Position numbers and translations under genes: made by a program | The notes under the pieces: generated by a model | Told to the model about the DNA's origin: nothing | The model's input: the letters and a program-made list of their open reading frames with translations, nothing else | Database searches by the model: none | IMG/VR virus record: IMGVR_UViG_2526164630_000049 | Source: a virus | Taxonomy: Duplodnaviria > Heunggongvirae > Uroviricota > Caudoviricetes | DNA length: 19,618 nucleotides | Reading direction: 5' to 3' (one strand) | In this document: in pieces, positions 377-19,618 of the stretch | How the letters are laid out: the number at the start of each line of letters is the position of its first letter | How positions within the stretch are numbered: position 1 is the stretch's first letter

Positions 377-384
377 GGTGAGTA

Positions 385-1608: not shown

Positions 1609-1640
1609 TACAGTATGCCCAGCCAGTATGTAATCAAATT

Positions 1641-1690: not shown

Positions 1691-1779
1691 GAACGCTATA
1701 CGATTAACTTTTTGACTGATAGATCAACTGGGTTCAGGATACCACCTGCAATATAAGCAGGTGATGGATAAATATATCA

Positions 1780-2346
1780 TTATTGGTCAGGATATTTTGA
1801 TAGTTCAACTTCAAAAGTTGAATTTTTGTTTTTTAGAACATGATCAACACCTGTATAAAGTTGCCGTAATTTATTTACTGCATTTATATCAATGGAAGCA
1901 GGGGAGAATGCTCGGATAAGATTGTTGAAGATTTCCTTGGAGTAAGCAGATTTCTTCTTTTTATCAAGAGAGTCCATTCTTTTAATAATGATTTCTAAAA
2001 GATATGTCTTTTGATTGTTATGCATTTTTTCTGAAGTAATAATCAGATACATCATTTCCCCCAAGGTTTTAGAGGCAAAGAACTCTGGAGATTGCTCTTT
2101 ATCTTCTGTTGTCCAGTTATCATAATTGAGGTGTTCTGTTGCTCCTGCCCATATATTACAACGGCTGATTAGCTCATATATTAAATAATCAAATCGCATG
2201 GGGAACTCTCTATTTACATCTATGCTGCTAGATTTTTCATAGCTCTCAAGTATTTCCTTTAGGAAACAACGATAATACATGAGCCACATATTGTTTTTTG
2301 AGCGTTTGAATATTGCTGTAGATACCATAACATCGAAAAACGTCAA
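1780..2346 (-). CDS. Hypothetical protein, downstream partner of the membrane protein in an AT-rich cargo module
   Basis: 188-aa ORF (TTG at 2346; first ATG at 2328 gives 182 aa). Its start overlaps the stop of the upstream ORF by 4 nt. No motif I recognise. Long open frame in AT-rich DNA. Confidence 0.55.
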   Translation of the reverse strand: MTFFDVMVSTAIFKRSKNNMWLMYYRCFLKEILESYEKSSSIDVNREFPMRFDYLIYELISRCNIWAGATEHLNYDNWTTEDKEQSPEFFASKTLGEMMYLIITSEKMHNNQKTYLLEIIIKRMDSLDKKKKSAYSKEIFNNLIRAFSPASIDINAVNKLRQLYTGVDHVLKNKNSTFEVELSKYPDQ

Positions 2347-3332
2347 TCCAACGAAGATTGGGCATTCCCAACGCTCATCACTACTTGAATAGTAATTATC
2401 TGGATGATTGTAAAAGCAAGAACTCCCTTTTTGTTTTTTATGTAGCTAATGACATAATTACCCACAGGTTTCCATATTTCTAAATCTATCGCCATGCGAA
2501 TATCATTTAAATAAAAATTAAGCAAGGCATTACTTTCGTCGAGTGCATACTCCCCTGTATATGAACGATTTTGGTTGTCTCGTAACTCCCTATACATAAT
2601 GCTGTTTGGGTTAGATATTAAATACGTAAAGAAATTTGTATTATACTCACAATTATATCTAAGCTGTAAGCAGGTGGCCTTCATAGCTACGTGAGGGTAA
2701 GTATCAATTAGATAATGTGAAAAAACCTTTGATTTCAGAAGATTGGATATATTTAATTGAATATCATTTTGTCTTTTGTCTTCATAAGGGAAAAACTTTG
2801 ACAGAAATCTCCTGACTTTTTTGAATCGTAATTTTTTTACCTTCTCTTCATCCATTTCAATGGGAGATAATGAAGGGGCTAAGTAATTATGTACGCGAAC
2901 ATACCATTTTTTATTGCTGATTATATTGAATAGCTGCTCGTGATATTTATCAAAAAGATATCCTAGTTGTTCTATTTTTTTTGCGCGCAGATATGTTTCT
3001 GAAACACTGATCCAACAGGTAAGGTTTGCTTTTGGTAGTATTTTGCCCTGTACTTTAATTCCAAAAAATATAATTATGATACAAAGACAAGTAAAAGCCA
3101 ATGTATCTTCGTTAAAACCGAGTATCCAAGGGATCGGTTTTATCGGGAAAACACTTAGCAAAACCTTAGAATATATAACTGTTAATATTGTTGATATAAA
3201 AAAGATAATGAATACTAAATTAAATTTAGATATGCGTAACCTTAAATCAACACGTCTCTCATCCGTTAAGAGAGTATACCAAGCAATAAGTATGGCGAAG
3301 ACTGCTAGTAAACCATTGGCACCCATTATCAC
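2343..3332 (-). CDS. Hypothetical integral membrane protein (about 3 N-terminal TM helices plus a C-terminal hydrophobic segment)
   Basis: 329-aa ORF in very AT-rich DNA. Hydrophobic stretches LLAVFAILIAWYTLL, FNLVFIIFFISTILTVIY, LAFTCLCIIIIFFGI and C-terminal GVLAFTIIQIITIQVVM. No recognisable catalytic motif. Confidence 0.6.
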   Translation of the reverse strand: MIMGANGLLAVFAILIAWYTLLTDERRVDLRLRISKFNLVFIIFFISTILTVIYSKVLLSVFPIKPIPWILGFNEDTLAFTCLCIIIIFFGIKVQGKILPKANLTCWISVSETYLRAKKIEQLGYLFDKYHEQLFNIISNKKWYVRVHNYLAPSLSPIEMDEEKVKKLRFKKVRRFLSKFFPYEDKRQNDIQLNISNLLKSKVFSHYLIDTYPHVAMKATCLQLRYNCEYNTNFFTYLISNPNSIMYRELRDNQNRSYTGEYALDESNALLNFYLNDIRMAIDLEIWKPVGNYVISYIKNKKGVLAFTIIQIITIQVVMSVGNAQSSLD

Positions 3333-4948: not shown

Positions 4949-5460
4949 GCCGCGTTTCCTTCTTTCTTATTAACAATCACACCGTCATATATTTCATTAA
5001 GGTGCCCTCTCAACTCCATGCGCCTTAATGCAGATAACATGTAATCGCATTCAACCTGCTTATTCCCAGTAAATGGCTTATCGTCAGGATTACCCCAACA
5101 GCAATTACCCTTGGGCCACCCATGTACTTTCCGTACTCTTCCGTTAACAACGTGAAGTAATCCCCAGCCAGGTGGTAAATCCTCAATTGAAATAATTCCC
5201 GGCTCACTAATAAAGAATCGCCAGTCGCCCATTCCAAGAGACGGATTTTTACGGAAACGCTTTTTTTTATCTGCCAACAAGTCAGCATGAGAACACTTCG
5301 CCTCTATCAGGCATGATGCTGAATTTCTGAATCCCATAGCATCTGGCTGTTCTCCGGTACTGGTTACGGCTATAAAGCGGTCATGAAAGCAAACCTTGAA
5401 CCCGTTGCGCTTAAGGAACTTGTACGCAATCTGACAGAGTTCTCGGTGTGTTAACGCCAT
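4945..5460 (-). CDS. Hypothetical protein, possibly a PD-(D/E)xK-type nuclease
   Basis: Track ORF 4945-5622 overlaps the upstream gene. The internal ATG at 5460 (MALTHREL...) has a good SD (AAGGAGAG) and abuts the upstream stop at 5462-5464. Contains D...IEAKCS resembling a D-x-E-x-K nuclease motif; this is weak. Confidence 0.5.
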   Translation of the reverse strand: MALTHRELCQIAYKFLKRNGFKVCFHDRFIAVTSTGEQPDAMGFRNSASCLIEAKCSHADLLADKKKRFRKNPSLGMGDWRFFISEPGIISIEDLPPGWGLLHVVNGRVRKVHGWPKGNCCWGNPDDKPFTGNKQVECDYMLSALRRMELRGHLNEIYDGVIVNKKEGNAA

Positions 5461-5461
5461 C

Positions 5462-6232: not shown

Positions 6233-6450
6233 TTCGAACCTCTCTGTTTACTGATAAGCTCCAGATCCTCCTGGCAACTTGCACAAGTCCGACAACCCTG
6301 AACTGCCAGGCGTCTTCGTTCATCTATCGGATCGCCACACTCACAACAATGAGTTGCGGATACAGTCTGGTAGTTCAGGCGACGCATTTTTATTGCTGTA
6401 TTGCGCTGTAATTCTTCAATTTCTGATGCTGAATCAATGATATCTGCCAT
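6229..6450 (-). CDS. TraR/DksA-family C4 zinc-finger protein
   Basis: 73 aa with CxxC...CxxC (CCECGDPIDERRRLAVQGCRTCASC), the typical phage TraR/DksA-like zinc ribbon. Confidence 0.6.
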   Translation of the reverse strand: MADIIDSASEIEELQRNTAIKMRRLNYQTVSATHCCECGDPIDERRRLAVQGCRTCASCQEDLELISKQRGSK

Positions 6451-6500
6451 CTTTCATTAATCCCTGAATTGTTGGTTAATACGCTTGAGGGTGAATGCGA

Positions 6501-6527
6501 ATAATAAAAAAGGAGCCTGTAGCTCCC
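6501..6527 (-). terminator. Intrinsic terminator on the minus strand
   Basis: Minus strand reads GGAGC-TACAG-GCTCC followed by TTTTTTATT (plus-strand A-tract 6501-6510, hairpin 6512-6526). Confidence 0.45.
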
Positions 6528-6548
6528 TGATGATTTTGCTTTTCATGT

Positions 6549-6830
6549 TCACCGTTCCTTAAAGACGCCGTTTAACATACCGATTGCCAGACTTAAGTGA
6601 GTCGGTGTGAATCCCATCAGCGTTACCGTTTCGCGGTGCTTCTTCAGTACGCTACGGCAAATGTCATCGACGTTTTTATCCGGAAACTGCTGTCTGGCAT
6701 TTTTGATTTCAGAATTAGTCTGACGGGCAATGCTGCGAAGGGCGTTTTCTTGCTGAGGTGTCATTGAACAAGTCCCATGTCGGCAAGCATAAGCACACAG
6801 AATATAAAGCCCGCTGCCAGAAGAATGCAT
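6549..6830 (-). CDS. Hypothetical protein (start uncertain; ATG at 6830 or at 6764)
   Basis: 93-aa ORF. No convincing SD at either candidate start. Confidence 0.4.
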   Translation of the reverse strand: MHSSGSGLYILCAYACRHGTCSMTPQQENALRSIARQTNSEIKNARQQFPDKNVDDICRSVLKKHRETVTLMGFTPTHLSLAIGMLNGVFKER

Positions 6831-6840
6831 TCAGTGGTTG

Positions 6841-7032
6841 TCATACCTGGTCTCTCTCATCTGCTTCTGCTTTCGCCACCATCATTTCCAGCTTTTGTGA
6901 AAGGGATGCGGCTAACGTATGAAATTCTTCGTCTGTTTCTACTGGTATTGGCACAAACCTGACTCCAATTTGAGCAAGGCTATGTGCCATCTCAATGCTC
7001 GTTCTTAACTCAACAGGAGATGCTTTGTGCAT
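6841..7032 (-). CDS. Small hypothetical phage protein (DUF1382-like from memory)
   Basis: 63-aa ORF in the cluster of small genes downstream of exo. Confidence 0.45.
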   Translation of the reverse strand: MHKASPVELRTSIEMAHSLAQIGVRFVPIPVETDEEFHTLAASLSQKLEMMVAKAEADERDQV

Positions 7033-7193
7033 ACAGCCCCTCGTTTATTATTTATCTCCTCAGCCAGCCGCTGGGCTTTCAGTGGATTTTGGATAACAGA
7101 AAGGCCGGGAAATACCCAGCCTCGCTTTGTAACGGAGTAGACGAAAGTGATCGTGCCTACGCGGATATTATCGTGAGGATGCTTCATCGCCAT
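7005..7193 (-). CDS. Small hypothetical phage protein (DUF1317-like from memory)
   Basis: 62-aa ORF overlapping the exo stop, as is typical of tightly packed early-left genes. Confidence 0.45.
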
Positions 7194-7864
7194 TGCTCCC
7201 CAAATACAAAACCAATTTCAGCCAGTGCCTCGTCCATTTTTTCGATGAACTCCGGCACCATCTCGTCAAAACTCGCCATGTACTTTTCATCCCGCTCAAC
7301 CACGACATAATGCAGTCCTTCACGCTTCATACGCGGGTCATAGTTGGCAAAGTACCAGGCATCTTTTCGCGTCACCCACATGCTGTACTGCACCTGGGCC
7401 AGGTAAGCCGATTTTATGGCCTCGAAACCACCGAGCCGGAATTTCATGAAATCCCGGGAGGTAAACGGGCATTTCAGTTCAAGGCCGTTGCCGTCACTGC
7501 ATAAACCATCGGGAGAGCAGGCTGTACGCATACTTTCGTCGCGATAGATAATCGGGGATTCAGTAACATTCACGCCGGAGGTGAACTCAAACAGGACTCT
7601 GGCGTCGTTCTCGTATTGTTTTCCCCAGGCCAGTGCTTTGGCATTAACTTCCGGAGTCACACCGGTGCAAACCTCAGCAAGCAGGGTGTGGAAGTAGGAC
7701 ATTTTCATGTCAGGCCATTTCTTTCCTGAACGGGGTTTTGCTATCACGTTGTGAACTTCTGAAGCTGTAATGACGCCGAGCCGTAATTTGTGCCACGCAT
7801 CATCCCCCTGTTCGACAGCTCTCACGTCGATCCCGGTACGCTGCAGGATAATGTCCGGTGTCAT
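7184..7864 (-). CDS. exo: Lambda-type exonuclease (Red alpha)
   Basis: 226 aa, the same length as lambda Exo. Sequence recognisably Exo ([37 protein letters not shown]...). 4-nt overlap with bet. Confidence 0.9.
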
Positions 7865-8646
7865 GCAGCCACCTTCTGTTCAGAGGCTTTCTGTTTCAGG
7901 AATCCAAGAGCTTTCACTGCTTCGGCCTGTGTCAGTTCTGACGATGCGCGAATGTCGCGGCGAAATATCTGGGAACAGAGCGGCAATAAGTCGTCATCCC
8001 ATGTTTTGTCCAGGGCAATCAGCAGAGTGTTAATCTCCTGCATGGTTTCATCGTTAACCGGAGTGATGTCGCGTTCCGGCTGACGTTCTGCAGTGTATGC
8101 GGTATTTTCGACAATGCGCTCGGCTTCATCCTTGTCATAGATACCAGCAAATCCGAAGGCCAGACGGGCACACTGAATCATGGCTTTATGCCGTAACATC
8201 CGTTTGGGATGCGACTGCCACGGTCCGGTGATTTCTCTGCCTTCGCGGGTTTTGAATGGTTCGCGGCGGCATTCATCCATCCACTCGGTAACGCAGATCG
8301 GATGATTGCGGTCTTTGCGGTAAATCCGGCATGTGCAGGATTCATTGTCCTGCTCAAAGTCCATGCCATCAAACTGCTGGTTTTCATTGATGATACGGGA
8401 CCAGCCATCAACGCCCACCACCGGAACGATGCCGTTCTGCTTATCAGGAAAGGCGTAAATTTCTTTCGTCCACGGATTAAGACCGTACTGGTTGGCGACG
8501 ATCAGCAATGCGATGAACTGCGCATCGCTGGCATCACCTTTAAATGCCGTCTGGCGAAGAGTGGTGATCAGTTCCTGTGGGTCGACAGAATCCATGCCGA
8601 CACGTTCAGCCAGCTTCCCTGCCAGCGTTGCGAGTGCTGTACTCAT
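7861..8646 (-). CDS. bet: Recombination protein Bet (Red beta, single-strand annealing protein)
   Basis: 261 aa, the same length as lambda Bet. Recognisable sequence ([37 protein letters not shown]...). Confidence 0.9.
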
Positions 8647-8651
8647 TCGTT

Positions 8652-8948
8652 TTATACCTCTGAATCAATATCAACCTGGTGGTGAGCAATGGTTTCAACC
8701 ATGTACCGGATGTGTTCTGCCATGCGCTCCTGAAACTCAACATCGTCATCAAACGCACGGGTAATGGCTTTTTTGCTGGCCCCGTGGCGTTGCAAATGAT
8801 CGATGCATAGCGATTCAAACAGGTGCTGGGGCAGGCCTTTTTCCATGTCGTCTGCCAGTTCTGCCTCTTTCTCTTCACGGGCGATCTGCTGGTAGTGACG
8901 CTCCCAGCTCTGAGCCTCAAGACGATCCTGAATGTAATAAGCGTTCAT
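8652..8948 (-). CDS. gam: Gam (RecBCD inhibitor), short GamS form
   Basis: 98 aa starting [15 protein letters not shown] and ending [10 protein letters not shown], matching lambda GamS. The upstream in-frame GamL-like extension is interrupted by TAA. Confidence 0.85.
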
Positions 8949-9166
8949 GGCTGAACTCCTGAAAATGGCTGTGAAAATATCGCCCGCGAAATGCCAGGCT
9001 GATTAGGAAAACAGGAAAGGGGGTAGTGAATGCTTTTGCTTGATCTCAGTTTCTGTATTAATATCCATTTTTTATAAGCGTCGACGGCTTCACGAAACAT
9101 CTTTTCATCGCCAATAAAAGTGGCGATAGTGAATTTAGTCTGGATAGCCATAAGTGTTTTATCCAT
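8945..9166 (-). CDS. kil: Kil-like host cell-division inhibitor
   Basis: The ATG at 9166 (SD AGGAG upstream) begins [43 protein letters not shown], which matches lambda Kil. The frame stays open to 8945 (73 aa), longer than I recall for lambda Kil, so the true stop is uncertain. Confidence 0.6.
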
Positions 9167-9299
9167 TTTTTGGAACTCCTGGCTGATTAAGTATGTCGAT
9201 AAGGCGTTTCCATCCGTCACGTAATTTACGGGTGATTCGCTCAAGTAAAGATTCGGAAGGGCAGCCAGCAACAGGCCACCCTGCAATGGCATATTGCAT
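9159..9299 (-). CDS. cIII: CIII (FtsH inhibitor)
   Basis: The ATG at 9299 (SD AAGGAG) begins [46 protein letters not shown], near-identical to lambda CIII. 46 aa here. Confidence 0.8.
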   Translation of the reverse strand: MQYAIAGWPVAGCPSESLLERITRKLRDGWKRLIDILNQPGVPKNG

Positions 9300-9360
9300 G
9301 GTGTGCTCCTTATTTATACATAACGAAAAACGCCTCGAGTGAAGCGTTATTGGTATGCAT

Positions 9361-9386
9361 ATAAAAAGGCCCTCACACTGGAGGGC
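9361..9386 (-). terminator. Intrinsic terminator in the early-left operon (tL-like)
   Basis: Minus strand reads GCCCTC-CAGTGT-GAGGGC followed by CTTTTTAT (plus-strand hairpin 9369-9386, A-tract 9361-9367). Confidence 0.55.
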
Positions 9387-9490
9387 AAAGAAGATTTCCA
9401 ATAATCAGAACAAGTCGGCTCCTGTTTAGTTACGAGCGACATTGCTCCGTGTATTCACTCGCTGGAATGAATACACAGTGCTTATTCGTA

Positions 9491-9961
9491 CTAATAAAAT
9501 ACCCAATTTTCTGTTTCTTGGTTGTGTCCAAAGTTATATTCAATATCTGGTATTGATGTATCAATATTCTTCATCCCATCAACAAGAGTTGATACAACAG
9601 CCAAATCTTGTTTGATTCTCATTAAATGGTATTTCTTCCGGCGCAATAAACTTTCAATGGCAAGTTTCTTCGTTGGGAATGCAAAAGATCTTTCTGCATT
9701 TTTTGCTACTTTCTTAATTGCATATCTATTTCTCTTTTGTTTCCATTCCTGTAACCACTGATTTGGTGCTGGTTTAAAATTAACAATCCAATGCGCAGGA
9801 ACCAACCATGCATAATGCTCTGTCTGATGAAAAGCTATATATTGAAGTGCGAATATTTTTATCCCATCTTCTTCAACTGTCGCCTGGAATCTCCAGAAAA
9901 CAGGCATTCCATCATGTTCAGTTTCTGATTCAGGAAAAGGTACGCTCCATGATTTTGTCAT
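9491..9961 (-). CDS. Hypothetical basic protein at the ral/sieB-equivalent position between N and cIII
   Basis: 156-aa ORF in AT-rich DNA, immediately downstream of N. Basic C-terminal half (KQKRNRYAIKKVAKNAERSFAFPTKKLAIESLLRRKKYHLMRIKQD). No recognised motif. Confidence 0.55.
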   Translation of the reverse strand: MTKSWSVPFPESETEHDGMPVFWRFQATVEEDGIKIFALQYIAFHQTEHYAWLVPAHWIVNFKPAPNQWLQEWKQKRNRYAIKKVAKNAERSFAFPTKKLAIESLLRRKKYHLMRIKQDLAVVSTLVDGMKNIDTSIPDIEYNFGHNQETENWVFY

Positions 9962-10019
9962 ATCTCACCTCAAATAAGTGGTTTGCTGCCTAATTTCATT
10001 TTCTGGCGACCAACACAAG

Positions 10020-10404
10020 TCATCTTGCTGTCAGTTGTTTTGATTTCCGGTAGCCTGCCGCGTAAAGAGCTACGTTTGGAAGACATACACCAGTTTCTGG
10101 TTGCTTATGTCCAAACTCATTCGCGTACACAATGGCCGCTCGCTCCAGATTGCGTCTGTATTCTTTCTGTTGCCAGATCACGTCCTGTGCCATGAACTTA
10201 ATTGGCTTAGCGTCTTCTATGCGCTCAGGCGTTTCGTGAGTACCTTTAGCCTGAATCTGCGCTCTACTTAGAGTAGGGCGGTGTAATACTTCTGAACTTA
10301 TTGTCTTCTTCGCGGGCCAGCACGCCGTTAGCTAATGCCTTTGCCTTTAAACGCTCACGACGACGAGAACGTGAATTGCCTTTGAACTGAGTTCTGCGTG
10401 TCAT
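10020..10404 (-). pseudogene. N: N antiterminator homolog, reading frame broken by a 1-nt indel
   Basis: ATG at 10404 with a strong SD (AGGAGG) encodes MTRRTQFKGNSRSRRRERLKAKALANGVLAREE (arginine-rich motif), then hits TAG after 46 codons. The rest of the protein continues open in the +1 frame to TGA at 10020-10022. The span is 385 nt, i.e. 3n+1. Confidence 0.6.
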
Positions 10405-10569
10405 ATAGACCTCCTGATGAACTTTGGTGGTGTGGTAGGTGGGAGACCCATTTCGACCTGTTTCGGCCTACTTCAATTCGGCAATAGTCCCGCAGGCCTC
10501 GCCGCTTTACGTGCGACATATTCCCGTCCATGAACCCTTCACCACACCCCAAAGTTCACTTTGGTTATT

Positions 10570-10584
10570 GCGCTTTGTCAGCGC
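10570..10584 (-). promoter_or_regulatory. Candidate nutL boxB hairpin
   Basis: The leftward transcript reads GCGCU-GACAA-AGCGC (5-bp stem, 5-nt loop), about 170 nt upstream of the N start, the same geometry as lambda nutL. A near-identical hairpin lies at the nutR position (15394-15408). Confidence 0.5.
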
Positions 10585-10660
10585 CGTAGATTCATATTCG
10601 AATCGTTGTATATTCACCGCCCTGGTGAGTAATGCGTCCTGCTGACGACGATAATAATGA

Positions 10661-10693
10661 ACCAATAGTTCGACATTATCAAGAACTATTGGT
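10661..10693. promoter_or_regulatory. Perfect 11-bp inverted repeat in the pL/oL region
   Basis: ACCAATAGTTC (10661-10671), 11-nt spacer, GAACTATTGGT (10683-10693), between the stk-operon terminator and nutL. Confidence 0.3.
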
Positions 10694-10865
10694 ACGAATT
10701 TTGGTGATTTATTAACTCTACGAAGTATGATTCTGATATATAAGGAAATTTATTTTTGAAAATGTGGCTGATGAAGGTTATGCGGCAGGGATCATAACTG
10801 CATGGTTTAGCGAGTTACATCAATAAATACAATTGGTTATGTTTTTTAGGTGGGCGAACGTGAGG

Positions 10866-10892
10866 CAAAGAAAACCCGGCGCTGAGGCCGGG
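10866..10892 (-). terminator. Intrinsic terminator ending the cI-stk immunity operon
   Basis: Minus strand reads CCCGGC-CTCAGC-GCCGGG followed by TTTTCTTTG (plus-strand hairpin 10875-10892), directly after the stop of the small ORF at 10893. Confidence 0.6.
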
Positions 10893-11057
10893 CTAGATTT
10901 TAAAGTATTTATCTTTTAGAGATGTAGATGTAAAACTTTTCGCCTTTGAAAATTTTTTGTCATCAGAAGGACTTATGAACTCATCTTTTTTGTAGGGAAC
11001 CGCTAATGCTGCATCACGTCTGCGAGGCAGCTTGCTTACTTCCTCGCGCTTTTTCAT
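10893..11057 (-). CDS. Small lysine-rich protein translationally coupled to stk
   Basis: Not in the ORF track (54 aa). ATG at 11057 lies 2 nt after the stk stop (TGA-TC-ATG). Translation MKKREEVSKLPRRRDAALAVPYKKDEFISPSDDKKFSKAKSFTSTSLKDKYFKI. Its stop abuts the terminator hairpin. Confidence 0.4.
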   Translation of the reverse strand: MKKREEVSKLPRRRDAALAVPYKKDEFISPSDDKKFSKAKSFTSTSLKDKYFKI

Positions 11058-11059
11058 GA

Positions 11060-12106
11060 TCAGTTATCCTTTAATAACCTATACAGTTTTGTAGGGGTAC
11101 ATCCTGAGGATATTGTTAAGTTCGTAGCACGCCTTTTCCGCCCATCATCGTATAAACGAAAACCAGTAGTAGACGAATTTTCTGCGTCAAAAACTATAGA
11201 CAGTATAGCGTCCCCAGACTTTTTTTGCCATTCGCATGTGCCGTTAGTTGGTTTCGTCATCTGTAGACGCCAGTCAAGAACGCCATCACTTATAGCTGAG
11301 AGATCGTTTAGTACATCTAGTACGGATTGATATCTTTCATTTGGATCTACATGAATGCATTTGTTCACTATTGTTATTAATTTTTTATGTATATGGGGAG
11401 GATACTCTTTTAATGGATAGCAGCCATTAATTATCGACTCTCTGAGTTGTTCAATCGTGCTAAATGCAGATCTTTCTCTTTCAAAATTATCATGTCCAAC
11501 ACACATTCTATATATGGTTAATCCTGCCTGATATATGTCATATGTGAAATTATAATCATTTGTTGATAAAGAAAAATATTCCGGTGGCACATGAAAATGA
11601 TATCCAAACTCAGGCGCAGCTCTCGATTCCTCATTGACTAACTGAGATAATCCAAAGTCAGATAGCATGGCCTCATTTCTGTTTGATATCATAATGTTAT
11701 TAGGTTTTATATCAAAATGCATAAGACCTTTTGAGTGTATATGATAAAGTCCACTTAAAAATTGAATGGAATACCGTATTATCTCCCTGCTTGTAAGATT
11801 ATTTTTTTTCATTAATTGGTTTAGCGAACCATTATGATAAAATGGCATGGCTATATAGATATTGCTCTCACATTGAGCAGCATACTGAACTTGCACAATA
11901 TTTGGATGTGCATGTTTATAGAGAAGCCTTGCTTCATTAAAGTAGTCGTCGTGGTTAGTGTTTTCTTTTTTTTCTATTTCTTTAATCACCAAGTCATGAG
12001 CTAGGTGTCTGTCATGAGCCAGATATACTTTTGAAAAACAACCCTGTTCTTCTAGATCACTAATCCATTCGAATTCTACATCAGCTCTTTTGTATGGAGT
12101 TAGCAT
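11060..12106 (-). CDS. stk: Eukaryotic-like protein kinase (Stk-like, Hanks-type)
   Basis: 348 aa with a lysine-containing beta3-like LVIKEIEK, catalytic loop HFDIKPNN, DFG motif (LSDFGLS) and PPE. AT-rich. Sits between cI and N, where 933W carries stk (from memory). Confidence 0.85.
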   Translation of the reverse strand: MLTPYKRADVEFEWISDLEEQGCFSKVYLAHDRHLAHDLVIKEIEKKENTNHDDYFNEARLLYKHAHPNIVQVQYAAQCESNIYIAMPFYHNGSLNQLMKKNNLTSREIIRYSIQFLSGLYHIHSKGLMHFDIKPNNIMISNRNEAMLSDFGLSQLVNEESRAAPEFGYHFHVPPEYFSLSTNDYNFTYDIYQAGLTIYRMCVGHDNFERERSAFSTIEQLRESIINGCYPLKEYPPHIHKKLITIVNKCIHVDPNERYQSVLDVLNDLSAISDGVLDWRLQMTKPTNGTCEWQKKSGDAILSIVFDAENSSTTGFRLYDDGRKRRATNLTISSGCTPTKLYRLLKDN

Positions 12107-12348
12107 CCCCTTACCTCCGCAGATAGTGCAGCCAAAACAGCTTCATTTGTTTCAGTTGTAAAACCAGAATTATCGATTCCATTTATATTGCGGTGTGACT
12201 TCAATATTTCTTTATACTCGATCTCTGTTAGGTTCAATGATGATTTCATGCCAGATTTTCTAATAGTGTAATATTTTCTTACATCACTGCTTGAAAATGC
12301 TTCTTGAATAACAGCTTCTATATAAAGGCGGTCAATGCTAAGATTATC
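12100..12348 (-). pseudogene. 3' portion of the first gene of the stk operon, separated from its 5' portion by the IS629 insertion
   Basis: Reading frame is continuous with 13659-13874 across the IS and the 3-bp target duplication. Track ORF 12100-12441 borrows a TTG start inside the IS left end. Reconstructed protein is about 153 aa. Confidence 0.6.
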
Positions 12349-12402
12349 TGAACCGCCCCGGGAATCCTGGAGACTAAACTCCCTGAGAAAGAGGTAAACA
12401 GG

Positions 12403-12729
12403 ATGACTAAAAATACACGTTTTTCCCCCGAGGTCCGTCAACGGGCAGTTCGTATGGTTCTGGAAAGTCAGGGCGAATATGACTCACAATGGGCGGCAAT
12501 TTGTTCCATTGCCCCAAAGATTGGCTGTACACCAGAGACTCTGCGTGTGTGGGTTCGTCAGCATGAGCGGGATACCGGGAGTGGTGATGGTGGACTCACC
12601 ACCGCTGAACGTCAGCGTCTGAAAGAGCTGGAACGTGAAAATCGTGAACTGCGCCGCAGTAACGATATCCTTCGCCAGGCTTCCGCTTATTTTGCGAAGG
12701 CGGAGTTCGACCGCCTCTGGAAAAAATAA
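12403..12729 (+). CDS. IS3-family transposase OrfA (HTH and leucine-zipper region)
   Basis: 108 aa ([33 protein letters not shown]...); coiled-coil [17 protein letters not shown] typical of IS3 OrfA. Confidence 0.85.
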
Positions 12730-13616
12730 TGCCGCTGCTGGATAAGCTGCGTGAGCAGTACGGGGTCGGACCGGTATGCAGTGAACTGCATATTGCCCCG
12801 TCAACGTATTACCACTGTCAGCAACAGCGACATCATCCTGATAAACGCAGTGCCCGTGCTCAGCGCGATGACTGGCTGAAGAGAGAGATACAGCGCGTAT
12901 ACGATGAAAATCATCAGGTGTACGGTGTGCGTAAAGTCTGGCGCCAGTTGTTACGCGAAGGTATCAGGGTGGCCAGATGTACAGTGGCGCGCCTCATGGC
13001 GGTTATGGGACTTGCCGGTGTTCTCCGGGGTAAAAAGGTCCGTACTACCGTCAGCCGGAAAGCCGTTTCCGCAGGCGACCGCGTAAACCGTCAGTTCGTG
13101 GCAGAACGTCCTGACCAGCTGTGGGTGGCTGATTTTACTTACGTCAGCACATGGCAGGGCTTCGTCTATGTGGCGTTCATCATTGATGTGTTTGCCGGAT
13201 GTATCGTGGGGTGGCGAGTCTCATCGTCTATGGAAACGACATTCGTGCTGGATGCACTGGAGCAGGCGTTGTGGGCCCGTCGGCCGTCCGGCACAGTCCA
13301 TCACAGTGATAAAGGTTCTCAGTATGTATCACTGGCCTATACGGAGCGACTAAAAGAAGCAAAACTGCTGGCATCAACAGGGAGTACAGGTGACTCGTAT
13401 GACAACGCGATGGCGGAGAGCATCAATGGTCTTTACAAAGCGGAGGTAATACACCGTAAGAGCTGGAAAAACCGTGCAGAAGTGGAACTGGCCACACTCA
13501 CGTGGGTGGACTGGTATAACAATCGACGATTGCTGGGAAGGCTGGGTCATATCCCTCCGGCAGAAGCAGAAAAAGCTTATTATGCTTCCATCAGAAACGA
13601 TGATCTGGCAGCCTGA
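12729..13616 (+). CDS. IS3-family transposase OrfB (DDE integrase core)
   Basis: 295 aa; DDE-type catalytic core (WVADFTYV ... HHSDKGSQY ... DNAMAESINGLYKAE). Start overlaps the orfA stop, the usual frameshift arrangement. Confidence 0.85.
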   Translation: MPLLDKLREQYGVGPVCSELHIAPSTYYHCQQQRHHPDKRSARAQRDDWLKREIQRVYDENHQVYGVRKVWRQLLREGIRVARCTVARLMAVMGLAGVLRGKKVRTTVSRKAVSAGDRVNRQFVAERPDQLWVADFTYVSTWQGFVYVAFIIDVFAGCIVGWRVSSSMETTFVLDALEQALWARRPSGTVHHSDKGSQYVSLAYTERLKEAKLLASTGSTGDSYDNAMAESINGLYKAEVIHRKSWKNRAEVELATLTWVDWYNNRRLLGRLGHIPPAEAEKAYYASIRNDDLAA

Positions 13617-13658
13617 GTTCACAGATAAAACACTCTCCAGGAAAACCGGGGCGGTTCA

Positions 13659-13874
13659 ATCAGAGTTTGATTCAGTAACGCGTATGGCAGCTAATTCAAC
13701 ATTATATAAATTAAGAATGTCGAGGATGTTATTTCTCACATACTTTAATTTTTCTGGTGTGTCTAAGGTCGAAGGTATTTTAATAACATCAACACATTTG
13801 AGTGCAGACTCATTAGTGCAATATACAACAAAAGATGTAACTTTGGGCGCCGCTCTAACACCTAGTATTCTCAT
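13659..13874 (-). pseudogene. 5' portion of the first gene of the stk operon, interrupted by IS629
   Basis: ATG at 13874 (MRILGVRAAPKVTSFVVYCTNESALK...); the ORF runs into the IS right end, and its last sense codon is the ATC target duplication. Confidence 0.6.
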
Positions 13875-13941
13875 TTTTTATATCCTATTTTAGAATCAGG
13901 CCGCATCTCTGCGACCATCCATCATCCAAACGTCTCTTCAC

Positions 13942-14282
13942 TCATCCGAAGAAGCAGCAATCCGGGTCAGCACGCACAAGCTCAAGCGCATCAGTCAGCG
14001 AAAGTTCAGTACTGTACTGATGCCATTTCATATCCTTCCGCATCCAATAGATTTTCCATCTATCCAGAGAACGTATGTACTTGATTCTTGCTGATGGCAG
14101 GATGTTTGTTTCACCTGGATTGCCCTGCCACACGGGCGCTGTTCGCCGATATCTATCGTTTGGTCATTGATGCTATAAACAATATCCAGTTCATTGCGGA
14201 TATGTTCAGGCGGCCTTATGCTTTCAATGAATTGGTGAACTTCTTTTTTTACTGCTTGATATTCAAGGTCATTGAACGCCAT
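13942..14282 (-). pseudogene. Hypothetical gene downstream of cI, apparently frameshifted
   Basis: Two overlapping track ORFs (14028-14282 and 13942-14133) in frames differing by 1. The N-terminal part of one and the C-terminal part of the other look protein-like. The span is 341 nt, i.e. 3n-1. Confidence 0.35.
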
Positions 14283-14342
14283 CTATCCTCCTTACCCAAA
14301 CGTCTCTTCAGGCCACTGGTTACCAGCTATGTGACGATGAAG

Positions 14343-15049
14343 TCACGAACTTTTCAGCCACTCCCTTGCCTCGATGTCATCCAGATGGCGAGATTGCTTC
14401 AGAATACCAGCTACATACTCCACCTTTGCTACTTGATGATAAGGCAACGTTATAGGCCTGTGATCCTGGTTAATGCTTGTAAATTGGTATTCTCCATCTC
14501 TGTCATAGCCAAGAACCTTAATCATGTTGTGTCCTTCAACGGTTCTGACAAACACCTCATCACCCGGGAATACTTTGGTGTTAGGCTCAATGAGTACATA
14601 TTCTCCTGATTTTATTCTGGGCCACATGCTGTCTCCTTTCACACGAAGACCAAAGGCATCTGGATCATCGCTATAAATTTTGAGCCACCCATCGCGCTCT
14701 TCGGTCATCTCGATGGCACCATCAACACCAAGAATTGCCTCACCAACCACGCGCACTAACCCTTTTTTAATTTGCCAACAAATGAAAGAGTATCTTCATC
14801 ATTCGCTCCATTTAACGAAGTGCCGTGCTGAAGCCAAACAACATCAACGTTTAGAAATTTCGCAAGCGCATTCATTTTTTCCTGACGCGGTAAAGACTCA
14901 GCATTAAACCATTTGCTAACGCCTTTGGACGAAAGAGAAAGGGCACGGGCTATAGCCATTCCCCTACCATGTTCATCAAGACCAGCTTCTTTACAGGCTT
15001 GCGCTAGCCGCTGGGCGAATTCTTTGCGCACTTTTTCATTCTGAACCAT
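14343..15049 (-). pseudogene. cI: CI-type repressor split by a 1-nt frameshift into an N-terminal HTH ORF (14756-15049) and a C-terminal S24-peptidase ORF (14343-14756)
   Basis: N-terminal ORF ends ...FVGKLKKG-stop; the C-terminal ORF (GTG start) carries the LexA/S24-like GDSMWPRIKSGEYVLIEP motif. The junction lies in an A6G3 run (plus 14759-14767); one extra A or G would give a single 235-aa ORF. The span is 707 nt, i.e. 3n-1. Confidence 0.65.
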
Positions 15050-15127
15050 GAGTACGATACTAAAGCACTTGCAAAAACTTTCAGTTCAACCATAATACGT
15101 ACTGAAAGTACGAAAAAGGATATTCCT
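15050..15127. promoter_or_regulatory. oR/pR/pRM region between divergent cI and cro
   Basis: 15-bp palindrome CGTACT-GAA-AGTACG (15098-15112). Related half-sites ACTTTCAGT (15078-15086) and AGTACGATACT (15051-15061) suggest three operators. Candidate pR: -35 TTGCAA (15069-15074) and -10 CATAAT (15091-15096). Confidence 0.55.
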
Positions 15128-15355
15128 ATGCAAAATCTTGATGAGCCGATTAAAGGTGTCGGCATCCCTGAAGTTGCGAAGGCTTGTGGAGTTAGCGAAA
15201 GGGCTGTCTATAAGTGGCTCAAAAACGGCTTCCTCCCTAAGACTGAGTTTTTTGGGAAAACTAAATACGCATCAAAAATCGAAGAGATTTCTGGTGGCAA
15301 ATATCAAGCAAGCGAAATGCTTGAAATAAGCAAAAAGAACCTTCTGGCTGCATAA
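15128..15355 (+). CDS. cro: Cro-like repressor
   Basis: 75 aa; HTH (IPEVAKACGVSERAVYKWLKNG); SD AAAAGGA upstream; divergent from cI. Confidence 0.8.
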   Translation: MQNLDEPIKGVGIPEVAKACGVSERAVYKWLKNGFLPKTEFFGKTKYASKIEEISGGKYQASEMLEISKKNLLAA

Positions 15356-15393
15356 GTAACACCGCTATTTTCACAATGGACATTCGTCCTACG

Positions 15394-15408
15394 TCGCTGA
15401 CAAAGCGA
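15394..15408 (+). promoter_or_regulatory. Candidate nutR boxB hairpin
   Basis: TCGCT-GACAA-AGCGA between cro and cII, with the same loop and near-identical stem as the nutL candidate. Possible boxA-like CGCTATTTT at 15363-15371. Confidence 0.5.
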
Positions 15409-15493
15409 GTCCCAATATATCTGACCAACTAAGGCTACATGCGTTTCCACGCATACCTTTCAACTAACTATTCACTATTGGAAATCTTAAGAA

Positions 15494-15790
15494 ATGGAAC
15501 AAACAAGTTACAGCAAACTATCCCAGCGTGACGTTGATCGCGCAGAAACAGATTTACTCATCAACCTGTCAACGCTTACCCAGCGCGGTCTGGCAAAGAT
15601 GATTGGCTGTCATGAATCGAAGATAAGCAGAACGGACTGGAGATTTATTGCTTCGGTCTTGTGTGCTTTCGGAATGGCATCAGACATCAGTCCGATTAGC
15701 AGGGCTTTTAAGTATGCGCTTGATGAAATCACAAAGAAAAAATCCCCGGTGGCCGCCGGGGACTCTAAGCAAATTGATATGCAATTCTGA
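15494..15790 (+). CDS. cII: CII transcriptional activator
   Basis: 98 aa; C-terminus KKKSPVAAGDSKQIDMQF resembles the lambda CII C-terminus; position after cro and nutR. Confidence 0.75.
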   Translation: MEQTSYSKLSQRDVDRAETDLLINLSTLTQRGLAKMIGCHESKISRTDWRFIASVLCAFGMASDISPISRAFKYALDEITKKKSPVAAGDSKQIDMQF

Positions 15791-15822
15791 GGGAATTACT
15801 GGATCAATCCACAGGAGTCATT

Positions 15823-16760
15823 ATGACAAATACAGCAAAAATACTCAACTTCGGCAGAGGTAACTTTGCCGAACAGGAGCGTAATGTGGCAGATCTCGAT
15901 GATGGTTACGCCAGACTATCAAATATGCTGATTGAGGCTTATTCAGGCGCAGATCTGACCAAGCGACAGTTTAAAGTGCTGCTTGCCATTCTGCGTAAAA
16001 CCTATGGGTGGAATAAACCAATGGACAGAATCACCGATTCTCAACTTAGCGAGATTACAAAGTTACCTGTCAAACGGTGCAATGAAGCCAAGTTAGAACT
16101 CGTCAGAATGAATATTATCAAGCAGCAAGGCGGCATGTTTGGACCAAATAAAAACATCTCAGAATGGTGCATCCCTCAAAACGAGGGAGGTTCCCCTAAA
16201 ATGAGGGACATCCCTCAAAACGAGGGAAAATCCCCTAAAACGAGGGATAAAACATCCCTCAAATTAGGGGATTGCTATCCCTCAAAACAGGGGGACACAA
16301 AAGACACTATTACAAAAGAAAAAGAAAAGATTATTCGTCCGAGAATTCTGGCGAATCCTCTGACCAGCCAGAAAACGATCTTTCTGTGGTTAAACCGGAT
16401 GCTGCAATTCAGAGCGGCAGCAAGTGGGGAACAGCAGAAGACCTGACCGCCGCAGAGTGGATGTTTGACATGGTGAAGACTATCGCGCCATCAGCCAGAA
16501 AACCGAATTTTGCTGGGTGGGCTAACGATATCCGCCTGATGCGTGAACGTGACGGACGTAACCACCGCGATATGTGTGTGCTTTTCCGCTGGGCCTGCCA
16601 GGACAACTTCTGGTCCGGTAACGTGCTGAGTCCGGCCAAACTCCGCGACAAGTGGACCCAGCTCGAAATCAACCGTAACAAGCAACAGGCAGGCGTGACA
16701 GCCAGCAAACCAAAACTCGACCTGACAAACACTGACTGGATTTACGGGGTGGATTTATGA
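15823..16760 (+). pseudogene. O: Replication initiator O, frameshifted by a 1-nt deletion in the A-rich tract after the origin iterons
   Basis: N-terminal ORF (15823-16446) is near-identical to the lambda O N-terminus. The C-terminal O sequence (...RKDYSSENSGESSDQPENDLSVVKPD ... TDWIYGVDL) lies in the +1 frame (track ORF 16272-16760). The shift maps to GAAAAAG (A5 at 16319-16323), where an A6 would restore a 312-aa O. The span is 938 nt, i.e. 3n-1. Confidence 0.65.
16171..16295. repeat. Replication origin: six 19-bp iterons (O-binding sites) followed by an AT-rich region
   Basis: Iterons of ATCCCTCAAAACGAGGGA type at 16171-16189, 16191-16209, 16210-16228, 16230-16248, 16254-16272 and 16277-16295; AT-rich tract 16296-16335. 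Confidence 0.8.
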
Positions 16761-17460
16761 AAAACATCGCCGCACAGATGGTTAACTTTGACCGTGAGCA
16801 GATGCGTCGAATCGCCAACAACATGCCGGTACAGTACGACGAAAAGCCGCAGGTACAACAGGTAGCGCAGATCATCAACGGTGTGTTCAGCCAGTTACTG
16901 GCAACTTTCCCGGCGAGTCTGGCTAACCGGGACCAGAACGAACTGAATGAAATCCGCCGCCAGTGGGTTCTGGCTTTCCGGGAAAACGGGATCACCACAA
17001 TGGAACAGGTTAACGCAGGAATGCGCGTAGCCCGTCGGCAGAATCGACCATTTCTGCCATCACCCGGGCAGTTTTGTTGCATGGTGCCGGGAAGAAGCAT
17101 CCGTTATCGCCGGACTGCCAAACGTCAGCGAGCTGGTTGATTATGGTTTACGAGTATTGCCGGAAGCGAGGCCTGTATCCGGATGCGGAGTCTTATCCGT
17201 GGAAATCAAACGCGCACTACTGGCTGGTTACCAACCTGTATCAGAACATGCGGGCCAATGCGCTTACTGATGCGGAATTACGCCGTAAGGCCGCAGATGA
17301 GCTTGTCCATATGACTGCGAGAATTAACCGTGGTGAGGCGATCCCTGAACCAGTAAAACAACTTCCTGTCATGGGCGGCAGACCTCTAAATCGTGCACAG
17401 GCTCTGGCGAAGATCGCAGAAATTAAAGCTAAGTTCGGACTGAAAGGAGCAAGAGTATGA
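16757..17460 (+). pseudogene. P: Replication protein P (helicase loader), disrupted by two 1-nt insertions
   Basis: N-terminal ORF 16757-17140 matches lambda P up to ...LPSPGQF; the C-terminal part (MVYEYCRKRGLYPDAESYPW ... KFGLKGARV) is in another frame (track ORF 17074-17460). The wt-like intervening segment VAWCREEASV.AGLPNVSELVD is readable only in the third frame. Insertions map to the T4 run at 17072-17075 and to GATTATGG at 17139-17146. The span is 704 nt, i.e. 3n+2. Confidence 0.65.
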
Positions 17461-17747
17461 CGGGCAAAGAGGCAATTATTCATTACCTCGGGACGCATAA
17501 GAACTTCTGTGCACAGGACGTTTCCGCGGTAACAGGCGCAACCGTAACCAGCATAAATCAGGCTGCGGCTAAAATGGCGCGGGCAGGAATCCTGATCATT
17601 GATGGTAAGGTCTGGCGAACGGTGTATTACCGGTTTGCTACCAGGGAAGAACGGGAAGGAACGGTGAGCACGAACCTGATTTTTAAGGAGTGTCGCCAGA
17701 GTGCAGCGATGAAACGGGTATTGGCGGTATATGGAGTTAAAAGATGA
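17457..17747 (+). CDS. ren: Ren (Rex-exclusion) protein
   Basis: 96 aa, near-identical in my recollection to lambda Ren (MTGKEAIIHYLGTH ... AMKRVLAVYGVKR); start overlaps the P stop. Confidence 0.8.
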   Translation: MTGKEAIIHYLGTHKNFCAQDVSAVTGATVTSINQAAAKMARAGILIIDGKVWRTVYYRFATREEREGTVSTNLIFKECRQSAAMKRVLAVYGVKR

Positions 17748-17772
17748 CCATCTACATCACTGAGCTAATGAC

Positions 17773-17804
17773 AGGCCTGCTGGTAATCGCAGGCCTTTTT
17801 ATTT
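17773..17804 (+). terminator. Intrinsic terminator downstream of ren (tR2-like)
   Basis: AGGCCTGC-TGGTAATC-GCAGGCCT followed by TTTTTATTT. Confidence 0.65.
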
Positions 17805-17817
17805 GGGGGAGAGGGAA

Positions 17818-18177
17818 GTGAACGATAGCTACCGACAGTTTGAAAACTGGTGGTCAAAAGACAAAAGCCAGTTCACGGGAGACGATGAATTAAAAGAGTT
17901 TGCCTGGGTGATATGGCAGGCATCGCGCTCTGCTATTGAACTGGATATCGACTGGCCCGAATCGAATGACGACCTTTGGAAAGATGGTGAAGAAGGTGCT
18001 TATGCGATGGGTTATGAGGATGGGCGTGACAAAACGGTAATTGCAGTAATGAAAGCCATCAGGGCCGCAGGAATCAAAGAAAGATTTCGATTAAGCAAAT
18101 ATCACTTCAATAAATCGCTTTTAAGGTCATCACAATCGCTCTGTGGTGAGGTAAGCACGTGCAAGGCATGCCGATAA
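17818..18177 (+). CDS. Hypothetical nin-region protein
   Basis: Track ORF 17803-18177 begins with TTG; the GTG at 17818 preceded by GAGGGAAG is the more plausible start. Acidic, Trp-rich. No recognised family. Confidence 0.45.
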   Translation: MNDSYRQFENWWSKDKSQFTGDDELKEFAWVIWQASRSAIELDIDWPESNDDLWKDGEEGAYAMGYEDGRDKTVIAVMKAIRAAGIKERFRLSKYHFNKSLLRSSQSLCGEVSTCKACR

Positions 18178-18228
18178 GCAGCGAGAAATGAAAAATGCGT
18201 CAGAATGCGTTTGAGGAGGTTTTAAGAA

Positions 18229-18444
18229 ATGAGTACGATAGCTGAGCTTGTCAGGGCTAATTTTCGTGAAGAGTTGGTGCGTTGGTATCGGTATCGTTCA
18301 TCGTCCAGTTTGCCGCTTGATGAGTTGTATGAGCATTCACCTGCCGCACGACGCTATCCGCGTGACCGTGTTCTTCGACGGTTGTTCAAACTCAACAATG
18401 AGTTTCAGCGCAACAGAATTATCCGGAGTCTGGATTTTAAGTGA
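18229..18444 (+). CDS. Small hypothetical nin-region protein
   Basis: 71 aa; ATG at 18229 preceded by a strong SD (GAGGAGG at 18213-18219). Confidence 0.5.
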   Translation: MSTIAELVRANFREELVRWYRYRSSSSLPLDELYEHSPAARRYPRDRVLRRLFKLNNEFQRNRIIRSLDFK

Positions 18445-18454
18445 AGGAGTGAGC

Positions 18455-18692
18455 ATGAGCGACCTATCATTAACCCAGCCAAAGCTAAAAGAATGTCCGT
18501 TTTGCGGCGGTAATGCTCGTCTGTGGGTTGAGGCCGGAATAAATATTGATGTGTGGGGCTATGCAGAATGTGACCTCTGTGAAGCCAGGGGGGCATGGGC
18601 ACCATCAGTTGCTGCGGCGGACTGAAAAATGGAACCGGAGAGCAGGAGATGAAGCAAACCTTTCTGCTTCGCAACGAAGCAATCAGAAATAA
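18455..18692 (+). pseudogene. Lar-like restriction-alleviation zinc-ribbon protein, frameshifted in a G6 run
   Basis: ATG at 18455 with SD AAGGAG; MSDLSLTQPKLKECPFCGG...CDLCEA zinc-ribbon. The current frame ends at 18625, but with one fewer G in GGGGGG (18588-18593) the frame continues through ...EKWNRRAGD to a stop at 18690-18692. The span is 238 nt, i.e. 3n+1. Confidence 0.45.
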
Positions 18693-19094
18693 CGCCATAG
18701 ACGCCATTCTCTCACTACCCATCGACGACAAGTCACCCCACGAAGTCCACGTTAAAGAACCCAAGCGCAGCAAAGCGCAGAATGACCGCATGTGGCCGAT
18801 GCTGAACGATGTTTCGCGTCAGGTGCTATGGCATGGTCAACGGCTGGCGCCGGAAGACTGGAAAGACCTGTTCACTGCCCTGTGGCTTAAGACCAAAAAC
18901 TGGAGCAACGAAGTGTGCCTGGTATCGACGGTGGCGTTGTCATGCTTGGCGTGCGTACCAGCAAAATGCGGAAGGCCAGCATGACTGAGCTTATCGAAAT
19001 CATGTTCTGGTTCGGCTCAGAGCGCAACGTGCGGTGGAGTGATGACTCCTGGCGAGAGTATGAATGGTCACAACGAAAAGGTAGGGCTGCATGA
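18649..19094 (+). pseudogene. ninB: NinB (Orf/recombination mediator) homolog, frameshifted in an A5 run
   Basis: ATG at 18649 (MKQTFLLRNEAIRNNAIDAILSLP ... QNDRMWPMLNDVSRQVLWHGQ) resembles lambda NinB. The C-terminal NinB-like sequence (...GVVMLGVRTSKMRKASMTELIEIMFWFGSERNVRWSDD...) is in the -1 frame, ending at 19092-19094. The shift maps near ACCAAAAACTGG (about 18893-18904). The span is 446 nt, i.e. 3n-1. Confidence 0.55.
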
Positions 19095-19618
19095 CTATCA
19101 AATCAAATACGCCAGCACACGACAAGGACTGCTGGCAAACGCCGCTTTGGCTTTTTGATGCACTGGATATTGAGTTTGGATTCTGGCTGGATTCGGCAGC
19201 GAGCGACAAAAATGCTCTGTGCGCTCACTGGCTAACTGAGGCCGACGACGCGCTCAATTCTGAGTGGATAAGCCACGGTGCAATCTGGAATAACCCACCG
19301 TACAGCAATATCAGGCCGTGGGTGGAAAAAGCCGCTGAGCAGTGCATACAACAGCGACAGACGGTAGTGATGCTTGTGCCAGAGGATATGTCTGTCGGAT
19401 GGTTCAGCAAGGCTCTGGAGAGTGTTGACGAAGTTCGCATTATCACTGATGGACGGATTAATTTTATCGAACCATCGACAGGGCTGGAGAAGAAGGGAAA
19501 CAGTAAAGGCTCCATGCTGCTGATTTGGCGACCGTTCATCAGTCCTCGACGGATGTTTACTACCGTATCCAAAGCGGCATTGATGGCGATCGGGCAGGGC
19601 GTCAGGAGGGCGGCATGA
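19091..19618 (+). CDS. Phage DNA N6-adenine methyltransferase (Dam-like)
   Basis: 175 aa with an NPPY catalytic motif (AIWNNPPYSN). The start overlaps the NinB-frame stop (ATGA). The stop codon is the last 3 bases of the window. Confidence 0.7.
   Translation: MTIKSNTPAHDKDCWQTPLWLFDALDIEFGFWLDSAASDKNALCAHWLTEADDALNSEWISHGAIWNNPPYSNIRPWVEKAAEQCIQQRQTVVMLVPEDMSVGWFSKALESVDEVRIITDGRINFIEPSTGLEKKGNSKGSMLLIWRPFISPRRMFTTVSKAALMAIGQGVRRAA

Follow-up and report, generated by a model that had tools for sequence, protein, structure and literature searches.

The locus and its broken genes

We analysed a window of 19,618 nucleotides (nt), the whole stretch held as IMG/VR virus record IMGVR_UViG_2526164630_000049, in which the regulatory and replication genes of a lambdoid prophage (positions 10,020 to 19,094) appear broken by single-base insertions and deletions (indels). 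The window is byte-identical to the final 19.6 kb of contig AIGX01000042.1 (250,800 nt), from the 2012 draft genome GCA_000250155.2 of Escherichia coli DEC11C. This strain is of serotype O45:H2 (PMC6028524), which agrees with the serotype of its nearest relatives: in a megablast comparison with 5,426 finished E. coli genomes, 10020-19094 was 99.8% identical and fully collinear in the O45:H2 strain FWSEC0003, as well as in UTAK-2 and UTAK-4. The loci of FWSEC0003 (NZ_CP031916.1, locus L001) and UTAK-2 (NZ_CP157162.1, locus L002) were used for the detailed comparisons.

According to the annotation of these two genomes, the window appears to hold the left arm of a Shiga toxin 1a (Stx1a) lambdoid prophage beside yjjG. 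The gene order in the relatives is: int, DUF551 and ea22-like genes, exo, bet, gam, kil, cIII, N, a Ser/Thr kinase gene (stk), an insertion sequence (IS) of the IS3 family and a DUF3024 gene; then cI, cro, cII, O, P, a ren-like gene, small nin-region genes, Lar and NinB; and finally a second IS3-family element, Dam and, later, Q and stxA1a/stxB1a. The lambda-like synteny of the early region (int, red genes, N, cI-cro-cII, O-P, nin) is present in the window, as judged by its layout of open reading frames (ORFs), the annotation of the collinear loci and the Pfam matches of the contig genes. The stxA1a and stxB1a genes lie about 6 kb past the position of the window end in FWSEC0003 and UTAK-2, and the DEC11C contig stops 55 nt after the window. 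The broken regulatory, replication and nin-region genes are the following (aa, amino acids; run lengths are given as finished relative to window).

10020..10404, minus strand: antiterminator N, 127 aa when intact; extra T at 10304, outside any homopolymer; 385 nt instead of 384
14343..15049, minus strand: cI repressor (LexA/S24 family), 235 aa when intact; T7 to T6 at 14763-14768; 707 nt instead of 708
15823..16760, plus strand: replication protein O, 312 aa when intact; A6 to A5 at 16319-16323; 938 nt instead of 939
16757..17460, plus strand: replication protein P, 233 aa when intact; T insertions at 17072 (T3 to T4) and 17141 (T1 to T2); 704 nt instead of 702
18456..18692, plus strand: Lar-family restriction alleviation protein, 78 aa when intact; G6 at 18588-18593 in frame, extra A at 18621 breaking the frame
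18649..19094, plus strand: NinB, 148 aa when intact; A6 to A5 at 18895-18899; 446 nt instead of 447

A sequence-only reading of this stretch had described these genes as split by single-base indels and had proposed an alignment to related Stx-type phages. The alignment to the finished relatives bears out the breaks in N, cI, O, P, Lar and NinB, and the gene spans are of 3n+1 or 3n-1 nt as described, with P at 3n+2 through two insertions. The Prokaryotic Genome Annotation Pipeline (PGAP) gives cI, O, P and NinB as full length in FWSEC0003 and UTAK-2, and N is present as an intact 127-aa ORF in both (L001 and L002, 10501-10884). The assignment of the breaks to homopolymer runs held for cI, O, P and NinB; the N lesion, placed in a homopolymer at about 10280-10300, is the extra T at 10304, and the G6 run blamed in Lar is in frame, the gene being broken instead by an A inserted at 18621, outside any homopolymer. 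The genes named as broken are indeed broken, but the list was incomplete: a 515-aa hypothetical gene, kil, the DUF3024 gene, a 92-aa gene and two intergenic sites are also affected. The genes given as full length (int, exo, bet, stk, cro, cII, ren) are so, and the IS transposase is complete in the usual IS3 form of two ORFs with a programmed frameshift.

The pieces of the split genes are mostly private to this draft. The truncated products of N, P, Lar, the 92-aa hypothetical, kil and the 515-aa hypothetical match DEC11C GenBank proteins (EHX059xx-EHX060xx) in an exact-sequence look-up covering about 15 billion proteins. N is left as fragments of 46 and 57 aa, the former encoded by a single contig, that of DEC11C. 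The cI lesion (A7 to A6 on the coding strand) separates a 97-aa helix-turn-helix piece from a 135-aa S24 piece. P also bears a substitution at 16830, and its 127-aa product was found in DEC11C only, as was the 98-aa product of Lar; outside DEC11C, the 111-aa product of NinB was found only in the large-contig drafts VIFQ01 and VIFR01, both of them heavily fragmented. A match in SRR30722218 (Logan assembly) to the 105-aa C-terminal piece of P is no confirmation of the split, because that contig begins within P and the genes that follow are unbroken.

PGAP calls N a 69-nt 'incomplete' pseudogene in FWSEC0003 and UTAK-2, an annotation gap that is open to misreading as decay. We considered N as a true pseudogene on account of the 'partial antitermination protein' annotated in the relatives; the full 127-aa ORF there rules this out.

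For Lar, an alignment with translations shows that the in-frame gene carries G6, or GGGTGG in some phages, and the G6 context matches perfectly in 324 of 491 finished-genome records. A frameshifted G7 is carried by FWSEC0003 (run at L001 19064-19070), by UTAK-2 and by one unrelated Logan run (locus L017). In the O45:H2 lineage, Lar may be a genuine pseudogene with G7; the real DEC11C gene may also be a G7 pseudogene as in its finished relatives, the G6 of the window being itself an under-call. FWSEC0003 has, in addition, one extra T in Lar compared with UTAK-2 (window 18545; L001 19027).

Indels in the prophage and in the adjacent chromosome

A global alignment of window positions 1-19123 with both finished loci revealed 15 single-base indels common to the two comparisons over 19.1 kb (2433, 9018, 10304, 14133, 14762, 16318, 17072, 17141, 18079, 18083, 18127, 18186, 18587, 18621 and 18894). 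Substitutions are limited to one in the body of the alignment (16830, a T/A transversion) and three at a junction (19082-19115). The window is collinear with FWSEC0003 except for the second IS, which is found only in the relatives, and both relatives carry the intact allele at all 15 indel sites, with the Lar G7 as the stated exception. Natural divergence among E. coli strains is the reverse, since substitutions outnumber indels; a proportion of 15 indels to one body substitution is a non-random pattern that belongs to the data rather than to the phage.

The indels split N, cI, O, P (twice), Lar, NinB, the DUF3024 gene and the 515-aa hypothetical, and they extend kil and the 92-aa hypothetical (two deletions) near their 3' ends; P, Lar and the 92-aa gene have two indels apiece. 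Annotated coding sequence contains 13 of the 15, compared with 79% expected (p = 0.75). Coding sequence being neither over- nor under-hit, with some genes hit twice and some indels intergenic, there is no sign of functional targeting.

The same kind of lesion is present outside the prophage. A control of 7.7 kb of chromosome from the same contig (yjjP to yjjG), compared with FWSEC0003, contains no substitutions and five single-base deletions, all of them in runs of 5-8 bases. Three of these deletions shorten the same C-run, once in each of the tandem tRNA-Leu(CAG) genes, which measure 86 nt in DEC11C and 87 nt in FWSEC0003 (ARAGORN; L014 16248-16566, about 4.7 kb to the left of the window); one of the others is in bglJ and one in an intergenic A-run. 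The indel rate is 0.65/kb in this backbone and 0.78/kb in the window, and of the runs of 6-8 bases, 4 of the 10 in the backbone were under-called, as were 6 of the 40 that lie in the prophage. The shortening of one and the same run in three tRNA copies, together with the lesions in housekeeping DNA, indicates a property of the data and not selection on the prophage; the tRNA-Leu triplet is a clear sign, within the contig itself, that homopolymers were systematically under-called.

Run lengths were also found to vary between assemblies. The Logan assembly of SRR096454, a run apparently derived from the strain of the DEC11C contig, given their near-identity, shows no substitutions against the GenBank contig over 6.5 kb and two additional T6 to T5 deletions, at window 730 (splitting int) and 3362, indicating that homopolymer length is unstable in that read set; this Logan contig spans window positions 1-3804, the right arm lying outside it.

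Two sibling drafts of the DEC collection, AIFG01 (locus L005) and AIFP01 (locus L009), lack further single bases in A8, A6 and T5 runs compared with related contigs, and parts of their stk and cI regions are without gene calls. This may reflect a similar error profile across the drafts of the DEC project, although AIFG01 and AIFP01 differ by 10-29 substitutions from the Logan contigs with which they were compared.

The frequency of each window allele in finished E. coli records was obtained with 61-nt queries centred on the site, counting perfect matches against matches with a one-base gap. The window allele was absent for cI (0 of 616 records), N (0 of 412), P with both insertions (0 of 2301) and NinB (0 of 640), and it was present for O in 5 of 1310 records; kil gave no perfect full-length match in the finished genomes. 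Beyond this set, the NinB A5 recurs just in VIFQ01 and VIFR01, which are visibly fragmented. Since the cI, O and kil alleles are rare (0-0.4% of finished genomes) and the assembly under-calls runs of this kind, error is strongly favoured at each of these three sites in DEC11C.

The form of the errors points to the technology behind them. The nine deletions shorten reference runs of 7, 6, 4, 7, 6, 4, 2, 7 and 6 bases, six of them thus in runs of 6-7 bases; the six insertions change runs from 0 to 1 (three times), 1 to 2, 2 to 3 and 3 to 4, and only one of them extends a run of at least 3. Long homopolymers called too short, scattered inserted bases and a near absence of substitutions are characteristic of pyrosequencing data and not of a long-read consensus. 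The sequence-only reading had offered assembly error as one of its two explanations, and the backbone, the private alleles and the re-assembly agree with it; the long reads to which it attributed the errors are probably the wrong source, the draft being one of short contigs from 2012 and the signature fitting pyrosequencing. Other drafts of Shiga toxin-producing E. coli from the same centre and the same year were obtained with 454 Titanium FLX and the Celera Assembler (PMC3491183), circumstantial grounds on which we infer that DEC11C was probably sequenced by 454 pyrosequencing and assembled in the same way.

Further features of the window are the following.

1780..3326, minus strand: large hypothetical gene, 515 aa in UTAK-2; T7 to T6 at 2434-2439, leaving 327-aa and 139-aa pieces
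8945..9166, minus strand: kil; G6 to G5 at 9019-9023 near the 3' end, 54 aa becoming 73 aa
12348..13658, plus strand: IS3-family element between stk and the immunity region, 100% identical to the FWSEC0003 copy
13942..14282, minus strand: DUF3024 gene, 113 aa when intact; G4 to G3 at 14134-14136, which splits it
17818..18177, plus strand: small hypothetical gene (Pfam Phage_phiTE_015), 92 aa when intact; deletions at 18079 and 18083 by the stop codon, giving 119 aa
18127, no strand: intergenic T insertion; no annotated gene across the site in FWSEC0003 or UTAK-2
18186, no strand: intergenic A insertion; no annotated gene across the site in FWSEC0003 or UTAK-2
19082..19618, plus strand: terminal stretch of the contig, with the end of ninB and the Dam methylase gene; about 1.2% divergence from FWSEC0003

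The split of the 515-aa gene is also present in the Logan assembly of SRR096454. The DUF3024 site has the reference allele in all the other fetched loci that span it, and the 119-aa product of the small hypothetical gene was found in DEC11C only. The 73-aa kil product is also encoded in one unrelated Logan run, DRR275247; across phages and assemblies, the kil product is of 47, 54, 73 or 82 aa, as set by the G-run near the 3' end. The IS3 transposase, with its two ORFs and programmed -1 frameshift, belongs to a genuine element. FWSEC0003 and UTAK-2 differ from each other at window 2974 (L001 3454), where T9 in the former and T8 in the latter give a hypothetical protein of 428 and 515 aa, respectively. 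Finished assemblies may therefore hold some residual errors of like kind.

Explanations for the frameshifts

We consider it very probable that the frameshifts in the DEC11C draft, and essentially all the indels specific to the window, are base-calling or consensus errors and not mutations of the prophage. The read technology dropped one base from homopolymers of 6-8 bases and introduced scattered single-base insertions, substitution errors being almost absent; each such error shifts the reading frame, so that gene callers output two half-genes. The real DEC11C prophage would then have N, cI, O, P and NinB intact, like the finished O45:H2 genomes, as the comparison with these relatives suggests.

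Several observations weigh against this explanation. Between 24 and 32 further contigs have the cI A6 split, either as a recurrent error or as a rare real slip. Five Logan runs, of unknown platform, are among them, as are two DEC drafts besides DEC11C and two fragmented large-contig drafts; one is a 4.9-Mb contig with unbroken N, O, P and NinB. Five finished-genome records, those mentioned above, carry the O A5 allele; in RM8426 (O26; L024 2036-2973) PGAP labels the gene 'frameshifted', and this is the sole lesion in an otherwise intact early region. The same A-run is also frameshifted in a decayed O/P remnant of ATCC 43888 (L025 2052-2973), and the kil G5 allele occurs in the unrelated run DRR275247. 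The cI, O and kil tracts can evidently change outside this draft. Three of the six insertions adjoin no identical base, which is less typical of a well-covered pyrosequencing consensus. The errors are, moreover, unevenly distributed: 12 of the 15 indels fall in 14133-18894, at 2.39/kb, compared with 0.21/kb in the left arm and 0.65/kb in the backbone (binomial 2e-5), so that the density exceeds the left-arm value about 11-fold and the backbone value about 3.7-fold; runs of at least 6 bases are affected in 4 of 8 cases in the right arm and 2 of 32 elsewhere (Fisher p = 0.0095).

Truncated O genes in the drafts DEC10A and DEC10B had been taken as the same error recurring within one project; this argument is weakened by RM8426, which shares the frameshift, perhaps as a real O26 allele. 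Homopolymer density was ruled out as the cause of the clustering, the right arm having just 8 of the 40 runs of at least 6 bases. Repeat collapse, by which a multi-copy arm would degrade a draft consensus, was also ruled out: each record of the closest finished genomes has 15800-19090 just once, and a left-arm control (1700-4990) is found there 2-3 times. The dense zone is bounded by the IS (12348-13658) and by 19123, the position of the relatives' second IS, where the window has a clean empty site. Divergence from FWSEC0003 rises from near zero to about 1.2% from 19082, the contig end follows about 590 nt on, and five of the six insertions lie at most 2.6 kb from that end. The excess of indels in the right arm is likely to come from low depth, or from a patched and possibly chimeric contig end; 19082-19618 is either a real mosaic boundary or else a chimeric contig end.

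The recurrence of some alleles elsewhere leaves a small chance that most of the indels are errors but that one or more of the slips in cI (A7 to A6), O (A6 to A5) and kil (G6 to G5) are real in DEC11C, which would imply a truly split repressor and/or a dead O gene. All three alleles have been seen outside the draft (the 24-32 contigs for cI, RM8426 for O, DRR275247 for kil); their frequency in finished genomes, however, is 0/616 for cI and 0.4% for O, with no perfect full-length match for kil, the assembly demonstrably under-calls runs of 6-8 bases (4/10 in the backbone, 6/40 in the prophage), and the closest relatives have the intact alleles. With the same low probability, cI A7, O A6, Lar G6/G7 and kil G5/G6 might be natural slippage hot spots that occasionally inactivate the regulators of Stx phages; if so, a slip in cI would free the DNA-binding and S24 domains from each other, and DEC11C might hold a non-inducible Stx1 prophage. 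A grounded prophage, in which selection has fixed frameshifts in N, cI, O and P and thereby kept a non-inducible element with its recombination and defence cargo, was the other explanation offered by the sequence-only reading, and we regard it as very improbable. The concentration of the lesions in the immunity, replication and nin region speaks for it, as do the intact int, exo, bet and stk; but lesions of the same type occur in chromosomal genes and in three tRNA genes of the contig, well beyond the regulatory and replication genes and beyond the prophage, and intergenic DNA, kil, DUF3024, Lar and NinB are affected as well. Selection for inactivation does not predict that P and two other genes should be hit twice, and natural E. 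coli divergence runs opposite to a ratio of 15 indels to one substitution. The lesions in N, cI, P and NinB are found in no related finished genome, the nearest relatives being intact, and further homopolymers are altered in the re-assembly of SRR096454.

Even less credit can be given to two further explanations, which we hold to be about equally remote. Real mutations inherited from a mismatch-repair-deficient ancestor, with homopolymer frameshifts raised genome-wide, would account for indels in both the prophage and the backbone, many of them in homopolymers. In mutator spectra, however, transitions predominate alongside indels, and there are no transitions in 27 kb, the lone body substitution being a T/A transversion; the three identical tRNA-Leu deletions and the insertions outside repeats fit poorly, and the SRR096454 re-assembly yields other run lengths. 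The other is functional recoding, by which programmed frameshifting or phase-variable tracts would yield full-length N, cI, O and P. Several of the shifts are in potentially slippery A- or T-rich runs, and the neighbouring IS3 transposase uses programmed frameshifting; but the relatives encode these proteins in a single frame, where conserved recoding sites would be shared, the shifted alleles are missing from hundreds to thousands of finished genomes, and three of the shifts lie outside slippery sequences. Conservation of the frameshift among homologues was found for the IS3 transposase only, and for none of the phage genes.

There is no new biology in the broken genes, and the value of the result lies in caution: prophage decay, inducibility, pseudogene load or Stx-phage regulation inferred from this draft would mislead, and the same probably applies to the sibling drafts of the DEC collection. 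The check is reusable, and consists of taking a near-identical finished genome, counting indels against substitutions, and repeating the count on flanking housekeeping DNA. Were the frameshifts real, DEC11C would hold a naturally grounded Stx1 prophage of relevance to toxin release, since Stx production depends on induction.

Comparison with known systems

Among the closest known systems is the Stx1a prophage at yjjG of FWSEC0003 and UTAK-2, with which the window shares the integration site, the gene order, 99.9% identity over 19.1 kb and an identical first IS. Unlike the window, these prophages have cI, O, P, NinB, kil and DUF3024 annotated as intact, and an intact N ORF; they also carry the second IS3-family copy between ninB and dam and the Lar G7, whereas the window lacks this IS and has G6. 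The window further differs from the FWSEC0003 prophage by the divergence of about 1.2% beyond 19082, and its stx genes would lie past the end of the contig.

Cryptic lambdoid prophages, such as the O/P remnant of ATCC 43888, resemble the window in having broken replication genes, and in this remnant the same O A-run is frameshifted. True remnants, however, show deletions, gene loss and rearrangement (ATCC 43888 has a truncated P with tail genes next to it), whereas the window follows the order of an apparently complete prophage throughout and otherwise matches it exactly.

Compared with the errors of 454 draft assemblies, the window is unlike in its right-arm density of 2.4/kb, above the backbone rate, and in that half of its insertions are without an adjacent identical base. 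It is alike in the large excess of indels over substitutions, in the loss of bases from runs of 6-8 bases and in the involvement of prophage and backbone alike; the same context gives the same error, as in the three tRNA-Leu genes, and run lengths shift on re-assembly.

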